A stretch of 63,988 nucleotides of DNA, filler included, from Collodictyon triciliatum (GCA_043381765.1; 6 parts of 6 records of this genome joined end to end with filler, not necessarily neighbours in it), one strand, 5' to 3'. Positions 5,650 through 11,587 are shown, counted from the first letter of the whole stretch. The notes: generated by a model not told the origin, from the letters alone. Made by a program: numbers and translations.

Positions 5650-8600
5650 ATGTCCGAGCCATCACCAAGCAGACAATCTAACGCCGGCAACCAGCAAGAA
5701 TCTGGAGACCAGAAACAGACAGAACTAACCCGAGAACCCGCATCGGTCGATGAGAAAATCCGCGGAGGCTTGATTCCAGCCGCAGTTTATTCTGATGGCG
5801 AAGGCAGATGGAGTGTTGTCTACGACTCCAGAGTCTTGAGAATTTTCATGTCCTCCACATTTCGAGACATGCAAAGAGAAAGAGACGAGTTCTTTGCAAA
5901 TGCCGAAAAAAAGTAACATCGTTTTTGTCAATTACAAATTCCATGATTATATGTTTGTATGTTCGGTGTATTGATCAGTTAAAAATTGTTGCAGACTCAA
6001 AGACTTTGCCAAGAAGAAGGGTGTCATTCTTGTTTTCATCGACTTGCGCTGGGGGCTGACCAGTGAAATATCTGAGAATGGATTGGTGGGAATTATTCAA
6101 GTTCCTTCTGAATTTTTTTTATTTTTCATTTATTTATCATTTATTTTTCATCAGTTTTAAATTATCACGATTATGAAGGTCGTTATCAGCTGCCTTGAAT
6201 CTATCGAGGAGTGCCCATACTTTCTATGCACGCTCGGCTCACGATATGGCTGGTCACCAAACCATGAAAACCCATCTGAATGGCATCCAGACACGGACTT
6301 GAAGTTTCCATACCTCAAGGAGATAAGGGGTCTCAGTGTGACTGACTACGAGGTTCACTTAAACAGTATAAACACTTGAAGTCGAATATTTGTATTTATC
6401 ACTATCAGTCTCTAACATCAATTATATCAAATAGATTGTTCACGGTGGTCTGAAAGAAAATCCTGTTGCCCGACGTGCACTCTTCTATTCCCGAGACGAA
6501 GAACATGCAGTCAACCACGTTGCTGAAACCGATGCAGAGCGTGCATTATATCGCCCAGTCAATGAAAAGGACGTAAGCAGAAAGGACTTTGGACCACCAT
6601 TTCGCTTTTTTATGATTTAATAATTTAAAAACTCATATGAACCTTTGATTTCAGAGAGAAAACCAGGATGGGTTGAAAGAGAAGATTGGAAGTGTGTTTG
6701 AAGTCAAGCCATACAAGACACCCCAGCAGCTTGTCTCGATGATGGTTGATGATTTGATGGAAGCCATCTATAATATCAAAACCTTGCAGCATAAGCATCC
6801 TGAGGACATGGCGCATGAGCAGTTTATGCGACATCGACTGATTGGATTGGAAGGAAGAGACACCATCTTGGCCATTTTGAAGGAGAAAGCGATGTTGCAA
6901 CTCGATACTGACGGTTCTGATATTACCGTTGTTGGAGCAGAGTCTGGTATTGGCAAATCAACGATTATGAGCGGACTGGTTCGTGACCTGAACGCGGGCA
7001 AAAAGTCGAACCTTGTAGTCATCTACCACTTTGTCGGATGTTCAAACCTGAGTAACTACGTGGAAAAGTAAGAATAATCGAATAATATAGTAACGTTAAA
7101 GTTTATTAGAGTCATACAATATATCAATCACCATTCGTTATAGTTTGGTGGAGCGTGTAGCTCGCATTCTTGTTGAAAATGAAGCAATCGAGCTGAAACT
7201 TGACTCTGAAGAAGGTTCACATTTCAAATGATAATTAATTTTTATTTCTTTTTTATTTTTTCATTCAACGTGTTACATAAGCACTCATTTTGTTTTTATG
7301 TCTTGTTGCAGGGAAGGAAGCTTTGAAGAAGGGACTAGACTACATACTCAAGCTTGCATCAAGAAACGAGTCAATTTCAATAATCTAATTTAATTAAAAT
7401 AAATATAATATCTGACAAGCCTATCAATACAGGAAAAAGCGGATTATCCTGGTCATCGATGCATTCAACCAGTTGGTCAATTCAGAGAAAAACAAGCACG
7501 TCCACCGCCTTGAATGGCTTCCCAAAAAGACACCAAAGAACATCTCCATCGTGGCATCAACCATCGACACCCACGAATCATGCGATGTTTGTTAATTTTT
7601 TCGAGGATATAATATGCTTGAATTAACCCAATCGCTTTTGAATAGGTTGCCAAGTCAGCAGGGCTCGATGTCATTCCTGTATCAAAGCTTGATGATGCCG
7701 GAATCATACAAGCAGCCACCTCGTTCTTCAAGCGCTACAACAAAACCTTGAGCGAGAAACAGATGGGGATGATACTGAGTGACCGTGATGATACTGGTGA
7801 TTATAGCTTATGATTCGAATATTCTTATAATTTTTTAGTATGAATATACCATAATGATGTATACGAAAACAGGTCATCCACTCTACCTGCGTATTGTGCT
7901 GGATGAGCTCCGTGTTTTTGGAGTGTACGAAAGAGTAGACACCGAGCTTCATGAAATGCTGGAGACGATAGGAGTTGTCAATTTGTTCGACCTTGTGATG
8001 AGTCGCTGGGGAAAGAAATACGGTTTTGTGATACATCTTAAGTGTTTAAAATATGAGTTTATTGATTTATATATAATTTTAGGAAAAGATATTGTCCGTC
8101 TGTCCATTAGTGTCCTTTATGTGTCGCGCATCGGTCTTGATGAAAATGAGCTGGACAAATACATGGAGCATCGACTTAACCAAACTCATATACAAATCAA
8201 TCATGCAACCTGGTATATCGATTCCTGTCATATGATTCATATGTGTCACTTTTGATAAATTGTAATTTTTATTTTAGGAAATCATTTCTTTTTGTCTTGC
8301 TGGATTCGCTCTTTGTGAGGAACGGGAGGTGATAGAGTTATTCATATAATATTAATGATTGTAATTGCTAATCACAATGTTTTATCTTAGATACGCGTTC
8401 TCTCACCAGCTGCTGACACAATCCATCAAAGAGCGATACTTTAAGGATGAAGCATACACAAAAAGTGAAGCACGTGAATATGGATTGTGGCTGCTGGGTG
8501 AATACGGCTCTGGCACTGAAGACAAGAGTGTTGTTGCCGAAATATGCCACAATCTGAGGATTTCGAGCGAATATGATAAACTGGTGGACTTTATGAAGAG

Positions 8601-11587
8601 TGAAAAGGTTAAATTGTGGATTTTATTTTTATAACTGTGGCATGTGGTGTAATGTAGTTTTTAGGTTGTTGTGAGTATGCTGGATGGAAACTATCGCTTC
8701 GAATTTTATGAATGCTGGAGAGTGCTGAATAAGAACGGATATGACCACAAAGCTATCTATCGCGAGTTGGCCAAGGTGATAAAACTCAATTACATGTGTC
8801 AATATTGAATTTATTTTAATGGATATGTACAACAGCAACTGAATCCTGCTGGCTCTGCGCTGGTTGATTACTTTCGAGAAATTCAAGAGAATGCCTTTTT
8901 GATTCCGATTCTTGAGCACCGCATTTCTGTTGAGACGGATGAGGGTTTGGTCATTTGATTTAGATTTTTGTGACAGTGTTGCTAACTTTTGGTTGAATTT
9001 TATTAGGTTCAAATAGTAAAAATCAGAATTTTCTGGGTATTGTTTATCGTCAACTTGGAAAGTATGATTTTTTTAATTATGTATATTTACATTTATCATT
9101 TAATTGGCTTATTATTTAATAGGAATGACAAAGCTCTGGAGTACTATCACAAATCACTGGAAATTCAACTGAAAGTGTTTGGAGAAGTCCACCCTGATGT
9201 TTCCACTTCATATAATAATATTGGGGTCGCCTACGAGAAGCTCGGAAAGTATATTTTATTTGATTATATTTATGTTTATCATTTCGTTAACTTATTATTT
9301 AATAGACATGACAAAGCCCTGGAGTACTGCCACAAATCAGTGGTAATTCGACTGAAAGTGTTTGGAGAAGTCCACCCTGATGTTGCTGGGTCATATAATA
9401 ATATTGGGATGGTTTACGATAACCTTGGAAAGTATCTTTTATTTGATTATATTTATGTTTACATTTTCATTAACTTATTATTTAATAGACATGATAAAGC
9501 TCTGGAGTACCACCACAAATCACTTGAAATCCGACTGAAAGTGTTTGGAGAAGTCCACCCCAATGTTGCCGCTTCATATAATAATATTGGAGCTGTTTAC
9601 AAGAATCTTGGAAAGTATCTTTTATTAGACTATCTGTTAATGTTTATCCTTCCTTAACTTATTATTTAATAGGAATGATAAAGCTCTGGAGTACTACCAC
9701 AAATCATTGAAAATTAAGCTGAAAGTGTTTGGAGAAGTCCACCCTGATGTTGCTGGGTCATATAATAATATTGGGATGGTTTACGATAACCTCGGAATGT
9801 ATCTTTTATTTGATTATATTTATGTTTATCATTATCATTAACTTATTATTTAATAGACATGATAAAGCTCTGGAGTACCACCACAAATCACTGGAAATTC
9901 GACTGAAAGTGTTTGGAGAAATCCACCCTGATGTCGCCAAATCACATAATAATATTGGAGCCGTTTACAATAACCTTGGAAAGTATCTTTTATTAGACTA
10001 TCTGGTAATGTTTATCCTTCGTTAACTTATTATTTAACAGGAATGATAAAGCTCTGGAGTACTACCACAAATCATTGGAAATTAAGCTGAAAGTGTTTAA
10101 AGAAATCCACCCTGATGTTGCCGCTTCATATAATAACATTGGAGAAATTTACAAGAATCTTGGAAAGTATTTTTTATTTGATTATATTTATGTTTATCAT
10201 TTCATTAACTTATTGTTGAATAGACATGATAAAGCACTGGAGTACTACCACAAATCATTGGAAATTAAGCTGAAGGTGTTTGGAGAAGTCCACTGATGTT
10301 GCCGCTTCGTATAATAATATTGGGAATGTTTACAATAACCTTGGAAAGTATCTTTTATTAGACTATCTGGTAATGCTTATCCTTTCATTAACTTATTATT
10401 TAATAGGAATGACAAAGTTCTGGAATACCATCACAAATCATTGGAAATTCAACTGAAAGTGTTTAAAGAAATCCACCCTGATGTTGCCGCTTCATATAAT
10501 AATATTGGGAATGTTTACTATACCCTCGGAAAGTATTTTTTTTTATTTATTACGTATTTTTAATGTTTATTCTTTCATTCATTATTATTTGATAGGAATG
10601 ATAAAGCTCTGGAATACCATCACAAATCATTGGAAATTCAACTGAAAGTGTTTGAAGAAGTCAACTCTGATGTTGCCGCTTCATATAATAATATTGGGAA
10701 TGTTTACTATACCCTCGGAAAGTATTTTTTTATTTATTACGTATTTTTAATGTTTATTCTTTCATTCATTATTATTTGATAGGAATGACAAAGCACTGGA
10801 GTACTACCACAAATCAGTTGAAATTCAACTGAAAGTGTTTGGAGAAATCCACTCTGATGTTGCCGCTTCATACAATAATATTGGATTGGTTTACAAGAAT
10901 CTTGGAAAGTATCTTTTATTTGATTATATTTATGCTTATCCTTTAATAAACTTACTATTTAATAGGAATGACAAAGCTCTGGAATACCATCACAAATCAT
11001 TGGAAATCCGACTGAAAATGTTTGGAGAAATCCACCCTGATGTTTCCACTTCATATAATAATATTGGAAACGTTTACAAGAATCTTGGAAAGTATCTTTT
11101 ATTTGATTATATTTATGCTTATCCTTTAATAAACTTACTATTTAATAGGAATGACAAAGCTCTGGAGTACCATCACAAATCATTGGAAATTCAACTGAAG
11201 GTGTTTGGAGAAGTCCACCCCGATGTTGCCGCTTCATATAATAATATTGGAGCCGTTTACATGAATCTTGGAAAGTATTTTTTATTTGATTATATTTATG
11301 TTTATCATTTCATTAACTTATTATTGAATAGACATGATAAAGCACTGGAGTACTATCACAAATCACTGGAAATTAAGCTGAAAGTGTTTGGAGAAGTCCA
11401 CCCTGATGTTGCCAATACATACTACAATATGGGTAGCCTACTCATGACCCAGAAGAAATACCAAGAGGCTGTGGACATGTACCAAAAAGCCAACACAATA
11501 TTCAAGACTGTGTATGGTGCAAACCATCCTCATACGAAGCTTTCAGAAAAGCAAATGATGATTGCACAGAAGATGCTGACCCGATAA
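5650..11587 (+). CDS. DUF4062-NACHT/AAA(STAND)-TPR protein (NPHP3/TEP1/NWD1-type NTPase module), NLR-like; multi-exon; one TPR exon frameshifted
   Basis: Spliced translation gives DUF4062 motifs (RIFMSSTFRDMQRERD, FIDLRWGL, CLESIEECPYFLCTLGSRYGW, SVTDYE), Walker A (GAESGIGKST), Walker B (IILVIDAFNQL), GHPLYLRIVLDELRVFG and YAFSH, then 13+ 42-aa TPRs (DKALEYxHKSLEIxLKVFGEVHPDVAxSYNNIGxVYxxLG); stop TAA 11585-11587. All introns are GT-AG and phase-compatible up to the exon at 10224. Confidence 0.9.
9123..11331 (+). repeat. Tandem array of 12 exon+intron units (about 183-189 nt), each a TPR exon plus a 57-63-nt homologous intron
   Basis: Exons at 9123-9248, 9306-9431, 9489-9614, 9673-9798, 9857-9982, 10041-10166, 10224-10347 (124 nt), 10407-10532, 10596-10721, 10783-10908, 10966-11091 and 11149-11274; the other eleven are 126 nt; all flanked by phase-2 type junctions. 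Confidence 0.95.

Follow-up and report, generated by a model that had tools for sequence, protein, structure and literature searches.

A DUF4062–NACHT–TPR gene of Collodictyon triciliatum with one repeat per exon, a probable member of a multi-copy STAND NTPase family

The gene described here occupies positions 5650–11587 (plus strand) of a 63,988-nt stretch of DNA from Collodictyon triciliatum (GCA_043381765.1), referred to below as the window. The window is a chain of six pieces placed in decreasing order of size and joined by linkers of the form N44-TTAATTAATTAA-N44; physical linkage exists only within one piece, and the genuine context of the gene is the first piece alone (1–11626), which stops 39 nt 3' of the stop codon. 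The exon model, derived from open reading frames (ORFs) and GT/AG sites, comprises 29 exons running from the ATG at 5650 to a TAA at 11585–11587 and separated by introns of 57–97 nt, with GT–AG ends in 28 out of 28. The predicted product joins an N-terminal DUF4062 domain, a NACHT-type P-loop module, and a C-terminal array of 42-residue tetratricopeptide repeats (TPRs). This is the tripartite effector–NTPase–repeat architecture that an initial annotation, made from the sequence alone, had proposed; it was recovered by Pfam, which was run exon by exon, and by alignment with the relatives of the gene.

Exon 1 (5650–5912) contains the start codon, a low-complexity N-terminus, and the first DUF4062 strand, RIFMSSTFRDM; its tail gave a weak DUF4062 match (profile positions 1–19, 18.3 bits) and was aligned to homologues from Diphylleia. 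The middle of the domain, with FIDLRWGLT, was assigned to exon 2 (5995–6085) from the exon model and the alignment, and its core, from LGSRYGW to SVTDYE, to exon 3 (6179–6352), the final codon of which (GAG, 6350–6352) encodes the putative catalytic Glu. Taken alone, exon 3 scored 27.2 bits against Pfam DUF4062 (PF13271), above the gathering cutoff of 24.7; in the spliced protein, DUF4062 spans about residues 60–190. Exon 4 (6435–6572), likewise placed by the exon model and the alignment, encodes a post-DUF4062 linker, and exon 5 (6655–7067) the pre-NACHT region with Walker A, GAESGIGKST, at 6934–6963. The remaining NACHT module and a helical region ahead of the TPRs are encoded by exons 6–15 (7144–8944), which align colinearly with Diphylleia DUF4062–STAND–TPR proteins. 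Walker B, IILVIDAFNQ, lies at 7443–7472 (IILVID at 7443–7460, exon 8), where the Diphylleia relatives read D(A/G)xNQ; in the alignment of the spliced product, both Walker motifs are kept relative to these proteins. The colinear Diphylleia homologue P0004 exceeded the Pfam cutoffs for both NACHT (27.5) and NPHP3_N (27.5).

The 3' part of the gene is a single tandem array at 9082–11413 (Tandem Repeats Finder: period 183, 12.7 copies, 85% matches, score 2984), in which the 183-nt unit consists of a 126-nt TPR exon and an intron of 57–63 nt and which holds 12 cassettes and the start of the terminal exon. The array opens with a half-repeat, exon 16 (9007–9061), recognized from the exon model and the cassette alignment. 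In the exon model, cassettes 1–6 (exons 17–22) lie at 9123–9248, 9306–9431, 9489–9614, 9673–9798, 9857–9982, and 10041–10166, and cassettes 7–12 (exons 23–28) at 10224–10347, 10407–10532, 10596–10721, 10783–10908, 10966–11091, and 11149–11274. The terminal exon (11332–11587) comprises a 13th unit that resembles the cassettes and a divergent capping repeat, together with the TAA stop. Against Pfam, the array matched TPR_12 (E 1e-42) and TPR_10 (E 7e-40) with a period of 42 residues. Eleven of the twelve cassettes are 126 nt long and cassette 7 (10224–10347) is 124 nt long; each opens on the third base of a split codon and closes on two bases of the next, which makes both ends phase 2. The coordinates given by the initial annotation and its description of twelve such internal exons with phase-2 junctions proved correct, and so did its statement that the introns are copies of one another: the 13 array introns (57–63 nt) align mutually as copies with a mean pairwise identity of 0.84 (0.86 for the cassette exons), and introns I10 and I11 are exactly the same.

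The 12 cassette DNA sequences are all distinct, with pairwise identities of 0.80–0.95. Compared with itself at a lag of 42 residues, the product shows identities of up to 0.87 (over 84 residues), whereas no value above 0.46 was obtained for 12 Diphylleia relatives. The array introns are of alternating types, and the first codon of the next exon alternates with them, being His behind one type and Asn behind another. A two-unit block recurs with 92% identity over 300 nt, cassettes 8 and 9 are 95–97% alike including their introns, and exact matches of up to 95 nt extend from an exon end through a complete intron into the exon that follows. The alternating intron types, the two-unit block, and the intron-spanning exact matches indicate that rounds of tandem duplication and conversion of the 183-nt exon-plus-intron unit, in steps of one and two units, enlarged the TPR part. 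The equal length and phase of the cassettes follow from such duplication of the exon together with its intron and need no further explanation. Since every repeat has a 126-nt exon and the same phase-2 intron spot, units can be gained or lost by unequal crossing-over without disturbing the frame.

Among the 13 array introns, six, all 57 nt long, contain no in-frame stop codon (9249–9305, 9432–9488, 10167–10223, 10909–10965, 11092–11148, and 11275–11331), and their retention would add 19 residues without truncating the product. We considered whether this proportion is meaningful and judged it to be due to chance, as all are copies of one sequence.

Pooled over the 12 cassettes, the synonymous difference was 0.275 and the nonsynonymous difference (pN) 0.106, a pN/pS ratio of 0.39; 22 of the 41 codons showed no amino-acid change, and the highest pN values belonged to codons 35, 38, 28, and 15 (0.68, 0.49, 0.45, and 0.34, respectively). 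The cassette aligns ungapped to the repeats of two kinesin light chains, KLC1 and KLC2. The groove residues of KLC1 listed as touching cargo include V305, K309, Y313, R327, K340, L347, L348, N351, and R266, and the Asn pairs in cargo contact are N259/N302, N301/N344, and N343/N386 (10.1101/322057). Through the ungapped alignment, these contacts map to unit positions 1, 15, 28, 31, 32, 35, 36, 38, and 39. All seven of the non-Asn contact positions fall within the 12 most variable of the 41 codons (hypergeometric P 3.5e-5), and when the two Asn positions are included, the count is 7 of 9 (P ~1e-3). The Asn pair, which holds the peptide backbone in kinesin light chain, is invariant across the cassettes. 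With the non-Asn contact positions among the most variable codons and the Asn pair fixed, the repeats appear to keep a peptide-holding ladder while varying the positions of specificity. The initial annotation had set the gene apart from one under purifying selection at every TPR position, and the concentration of variation on groove positions agrees with it. Two further comparisons were set aside as signs of positive selection: the introns are not more conserved than the exons (0.84 versus 0.86), and the excess of the synonymous difference (0.275) over the intron difference is a weak sign because much of a short, AT-rich intron is made up of splice signals.

According to two 2026 preprints (bioRxiv 10.64898/2026.05.01.722283; 10.64898/2026.09.04.749371), DUF4062, there named NIR, is a TIR-like NADase with ADP-ribose and nicotinamide as its products; it serves the bacterial anti-phage proteins Avs2, Swarozyc, Vulcan, and Vesta as their killing domain, and it is active in human TEP1, where the NADase activity needs E1008. 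Most eukaryotic DUF4062/NIR proteins are described as NLR-like with the domain at the N-terminus (10.64898/2026.09.04.749371). The Diphylleia protein P0009 aligns to the TIR-like domain of TEP1 (PDB 11gz, E 2e-19), and exon 3 of our gene aligns to P0009 ungapped over 58 residues (E 6e-19), so that SVTDYE corresponds to SVTEME in P0009 and to SVTEME in TEP1. The last Glu of SVTDYE is invariant in all nine aligned family members, and the first acidic position is variable. From the stated crystal construct (895–1113) and the 220-residue chain, E1008 would fall on chain position 115; E1008 of TEP1 (E108 of PsAvs2) would then be the second Glu of SVTEME and the last Glu of SVTDYE. The view of the initial annotation that DUF4062 is a TIR-like enzyme whose Glu is retained here thus gains support from the two preprints and from the alignment to the TEP1 structure.

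Relatives of the gene were few. An earlier search with exon 5 for longer homologous proteins gave no match; an exhaustive HMMER search with the same query against 1.84 billion representatives (E<=1e-3) then gave only 17 proteins. Thirteen of these come from the EukProt transcriptome of Diphylleia rotans, where they represent 13 separate Trinity genes with 29–49% identity, and the other four are exon-sized ORFs on short contigs, two of which are 91% and 94% identical to our gene and distinct from both copies in the window. Among the 12 long relatives (E<=1e-5), DUF4062 was matched in six, a STAND NTPase family (NACHT, NPHP3_N, or nSTAND1) in nine, and TPR_12 in ten, and one (P0003) also has a large WD40 region. 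A search of metagenome contigs for related loci yielded three, with only 26–36% identity, one of them (L001) a bacterial-type contig with uninterrupted ORFs. The read-through TPR ORF had 278 matches among proteins; the 120 listed were all generic TPR proteins with at most 44% identity, and none of them contained a near-identical array. The 20 sequencing runs listed as sharing sequence with the query contained just 0.05–0.12 of the sampled words, and no conclusion on habitat, strain, or expression was drawn from them.

A paralogue was located by tblastn with the spliced product on another contig of the window (51899–56057, plus strand). It has the same exon layout with only one internal cassette, and it is decayed: the query exons aligned in 18 of 18 cases with identities of 0.75–0.95, several frameshifting indels are present, and in-frame TAA codons occur at 52457–52459 and 55395–55397. 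Colinearity of the two copies begins 87 nt 5' of the ATG and extends to the stop, with about 83% identity including the introns. On the evidence of these comparisons, the gene belongs to a multi-copy family, the nearest sampled members of which are diphyllatean; judged by the nearest homologues, which are 38–49% identical, the host is likely a protist related to Diphylleia. With one copy decayed and reduced to a single internal cassette against 12 in the other, the family shows birth and death and wide divergence in cassette number.

Two side observations concern the paralogue. A comparison of 6768–6800 with 52990–53125 suggests that exon 5 of our gene lost an intron through a genomic deletion: in the paralogue and the contig behind P0014, an intron of about 93 nt comes after ..IDKDFPDQE, whereas our gene reads ..IYNIKTLQ, seemingly derived from the 3' end of that lost intron (..AACCTTGCAG), and the Diphylleia relatives retain a sequence of the D-F-P type. 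In addition, an intron of the paralogue contains a long (ATT)n microsatellite followed by (ATG)n/(ATTATG)n at 54936–55144.

The intron position was followed into Diphylleia by comparing 17 shorter isoforms each with the longest isoform of the same Trinity gene. In ten of the 17, the break coincides exactly with the boundary of a TPR unit (..LGK|YES.., ..LSR|YTV.., and ..MKE|YEK.. are examples, in steps of 42 residues); five are only 5'-partial, and three break elsewhere. Several of the isoforms that break at a boundary run on into T-rich, intron-like tails, and at two such breaks the codon is altered in its third base only (K/N, E/D), matching the prediction for a phase-2 intron. The Diphylleia relatives, with their more divergent repeats, thus appear to share the same phase-2 intron at each repeat boundary, which suggests that the intron position is older than the present array. 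Among the Diphylleia isoform pairs that could be aligned end to end, none of nine differed by an internal 42-residue block; together with the ends at TPR boundaries, this points to intron retention and not to cassette skipping. The initial annotation had described the cassettes as interchangeable, and this stands for the gain or loss of units, which keeps the frame; no support emerged for working skipping, swapping, or combining of cassettes, given this absence of internal differences and the fact that the symmetry of the cassettes is automatic.

The gene is best explained as a member of a multi-copy, lineage-restricted STAND NTPase family with an N-terminal DUF4062, a NACHT module of the NPHP3/TEP1 type, and a C-terminal TPR solenoid of the kinesin light chain type, the array of which arose by tandem duplication; we regard this reading as probable. 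By analogy with the family, a ligand in the TPR groove would release the NACHT switch and the protein would oligomerise, gathering its DUF4062 domains. The gathered domains of this gene product may then hydrolyse NAD+, as those of bacterial Avs2, Swarozyc, and Vulcan and of human TEP1 do, and this hydrolysis would serve as a defence or cell-fate response. A number of points weigh against this explanation. On exon 5 alone, NPHP3_N and NACHT remained below their cutoffs (20.3 bits against 24.8 and 17.4 against 26.7, respectively), the module being spread over about ten exons. Human NPHP3, NWD1, and NWD2 had no NADase activity in vitro according to the two DUF4062 preprints (10.64898/2026.05.01.722283; 10.64898/2026.09.04.749371), so a retained Glu is no proof of activity, and the mapping of E1008 depends on an inferred shift of one residue from chain to protein numbers. 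The pN/pS ratio over all codons is below 1, and the excess of change in the groove could stem from a relaxation of constraint on exposed residues and not from positive selection; the variable codons were, besides, picked on the basis of these very data, and variation of exposed residues is found in any repeat family. Lastly, the frameshift in cassette 7 means that the gene as assembled may make no full protein.

This frameshift is a 2-nt deletion after about position 10292, in a CCC run, where cassette 7 reads CCACTGATG and the other cassettes read CCACCCTGATG. With cassette 7 spliced in, a stop follows immediately; with cassette 7 omitted, the frame stays open for 1325 codons. The cassette is either an error, or a sign of decay, or an exon that needs to be skipped. 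If the deletion is real and the cassette is spliced in, the gene would be a recently dead family member with a premature stop six exons before its end, an explanation to which the birth and death of the family and the plainly decayed paralogue lend weight and which is compatible with membership in a multi-copy family. It is nonetheless rather unlikely: the other 28 exons are intact, no stop occurs in the 1325 codons, the splice-site pairs are kept in 28 of 28 introns, the paralogue at 83% identity has by contrast at least two in-frame stops and several frameshifts, and the 2 nt missing from a CCC run could reflect an error of sequencing or assembly. That the length or order of the array as a whole is an assembly artefact, with copies collapsed, expanded, or chimerically joined, is very improbable; the assembly is indeed fragmented (contigs of about 11.6 kb, that of the gene ending 39 nt after it) and exact stretches of up to 95 nt are shared among the repeats, but the 12 cassettes all differ from one another (0.80–0.95), no N run lies within the array, and frame and splice sites are intact in 11 of the 12 units.

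An ordinary orthologue of NPHP3 with a ciliary housekeeping role, in which the array has no special meaning, would account for the partial Pfam matches to NPHP3_N and TPR_NPHP3, and Diphylleia-type protists are flagellates. There is little chance that this applies, and a single-copy NPHP3 orthologue, with which the initial annotation had contrasted its proposal, does not fit the data: at least two copies occur in 64 kb of unlinked contigs, further near-copies exist, Diphylleia has its 13 Trinity genes, and the relatives fall far short of the 0.87 internal repeat identity found in this gene. The NPHP3-specific N-terminal domain, PF25022, gave no Pfam match in exon 1, and the Diphylleia relative that does carry it (P0015) is only 33% identical to our gene and among the most distant. 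More would follow from combinatorial use of the cassettes, by which regulated skipping, or somatic recombination between look-alike introns, would draw a repertoire of TPR sensors for one cell or clone from one gene and the defective cassette 7 would always be skipped. The symmetric phase-2 cassettes of 126 nt, the 1325-codon frame reopened by dropping cassette 7, and the near-copy introns, which with exact matches of up to 95 nt across an intron would be good recombination substrates, are what such use would lead one to expect, and somatic recombination was proposed for similar arrays by the authors of the Ectocarpus study (PMC3341825). We hold it to be improbable, since tandem duplication produces the symmetry automatically, cassette 7 has splice sites no different from those of its neighbours, and the Diphylleia isoforms, with no internal 42-residue deletion in nine pairs and truncation at TPR boundaries, fit intron retention. 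A working cassette system, operating by choice at the RNA level or by recombination between copy introns in clonal lineages and always omitting cassette 7, is likewise improbable. If it were true, a unicellular eukaryote would derive a diversified repertoire of NADase-coupled receptors from few genes, and the phase-2 intron at every TPR boundary, common to the Diphylleia relatives, would be kept by selection for cassette use. Diversity most likely arises in the germ line, by duplication, conversion, and point change, and not by regulated splicing.

The parallel with the brown alga Ectocarpus drawn by the initial annotation is real. The NB-ARC-TPR genes of this alga (Zambounis et al. 2012, PMC3341825) have one 126-nt exon per 42-residue TPR, and, as here, repetitive exon-per-TPR arrays form the sensor on a STAND NTPase in a family with birth and death; pseudogenes and inactivated exons are reported there, as in the family of our gene. 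According to the same account, the algal proteins have NB-ARC without DUF4062, in contrast to the NACHT-type module with DUF4062 found here, and the algal introns hold stray or inverted repeat exons, whereas those of the C. triciliatum array are copies of 57–63 nt with no extra repeat exons. Because the two organisms belong to different eukaryotic supergroups, the exon-per-repeat array is probably independent of that of Ectocarpus in origin. Fungal NLRs (Dyrka et al. 2014, PMC4986451) are similar in carrying 42-residue TPRs with high identity between the repeats of one gene, for which a value of about 85% serves as the criterion, on NACHT or NB-ARC. Their repeats may be of the TPR, ANK, or WD type; the variable sites of the 42-residue TPRs lie on the concave side of a KLC2-based model, a pattern like the groove variation of our cassettes, and repeat number varies, with polymorphism among strains in Podospora, while here it differs between paralogues (12 versus 1). 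The fungal N-terminal domains are different (HET, sesB-like, PNP_UDP, and others), and a division into one repeat per exon, as in our gene, was not found described for fungal NLRs in the available text of that study.

In having an N-terminal DUF4062, a STAND NTPase, and a C-terminal repeat sensor, the gene product resembles TEP1, NWD1, NWD2, NPHP3, TTC41, Avs2, Swarozyc, Vulcan, and Vesta; the catalytic Glu is given as conserved in those DUF4062/NIR proteins, as it is in our gene, and activity is reported as demonstrated just for TEP1 and the bacterial proteins and not for the NPHP3 type (10.64898/2026.05.01.722283; 10.64898/2026.09.04.749371). The main text of the second preprint (10.64898/2026.09.04.749371) contains no occurrence of Diphylleia or CRuMs, and no mention of exon-per-repeat arrays was found in the available text of either. 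With kinesin light chain (PDB 7ai4, 3edt, 6fuz, and others), the TPR unit shares the 42-residue period, the ungapped alignment, and the Asn pair that hydrogen-bonds cargo peptides (10.1101/322057); kinesin light chain has six divergent repeats and no NTPase, whereas here there are about 15 near-identical repeats with groove residues differing by unit. None of the papers listed on the Diphylleia genome dealt with nuclear NLR-like genes, and no published account of the combination in the diphyllatean lineage was found, supplementary tables (PMC3341825; Table S5 of the NIR preprint) not being covered.

The layout is already known from immune-type receptors of brown algae and fungi, and the gene is a new example and not a new kind of system. 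It unites, in a single gene from a deep lineage of eukaryotes that has been little studied, a DUF4062 effector on a NACHT module, an exon-per-TPR array, and near-identical repeats varying in the groove, three features previously described separately: DUF4062–NACHT in the 2026 preprints, exon-per-TPR arrays in brown algae, and repeats varying on the binding face in fungal NLRs. Should the family serve as defence sensors, an NLR-like form of immunity that depletes NAD and has fast-evolving sensors would reach beyond animals, plants, fungi, and brown algae to free-living protists. With its short introns and small cassettes, the gene also offers a compact model for asking whether the exon-per-repeat layout is a by-product of duplication or is used to vary receptors, and cassette 7 provides a sharp test: its skipping would give the first direct indication that cassettes are chosen; otherwise the gene is dying.

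The six pieces of the window extend over 1–11626, 11727–23347, 23448–35065, 35166–46781, 46882–58493, and 58594 to the end, with linkers at 11627–11726, 23348–23447, 35066–35165, 46782–46881, and 58494–58593; an Rfam scan of the whole window gave no match. In the last piece, an intron-free WD40-repeat ORF of at least 431 residues lies at 62695–63987 (plus strand) and runs past the end of the window; its repeats, with a period of 126 nt, 6.4 copies, and 77% matches, are identical to one another to a moderately high degree. This ORF may encode the sensor of a further gene of the STAND type; the Diphylleia relative P0003 (2619 aa) joins TPR and WD40. An ORF of 803 residues with hemerythrin was found at 30502–34686 (minus strand), with zinc-ribbon and RING pieces downstream, the layout of a BRUTUS-like iron-sensing E3 ligase; its closest database matches were plant BRUTUS-like proteins (28–34%), a result uninformative as to taxon. 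Leucine-rich-repeat ORFs, one of them uninterrupted over 475 residues, lie at 41237–45000 (plus strand), on a separate contig from the main gene, and the very end of that contig (46307–46781) is occupied by a 248-nt unit present in 1.9 copies with 96% identity. The start of the second contig (11727–13500) has a higher G+C content and dense short tandem repeats (GGGTGTGAT-type, TGAGA); since it is unlike the AT-rich contig of the gene, the assembly may mix sequence of different kinds.

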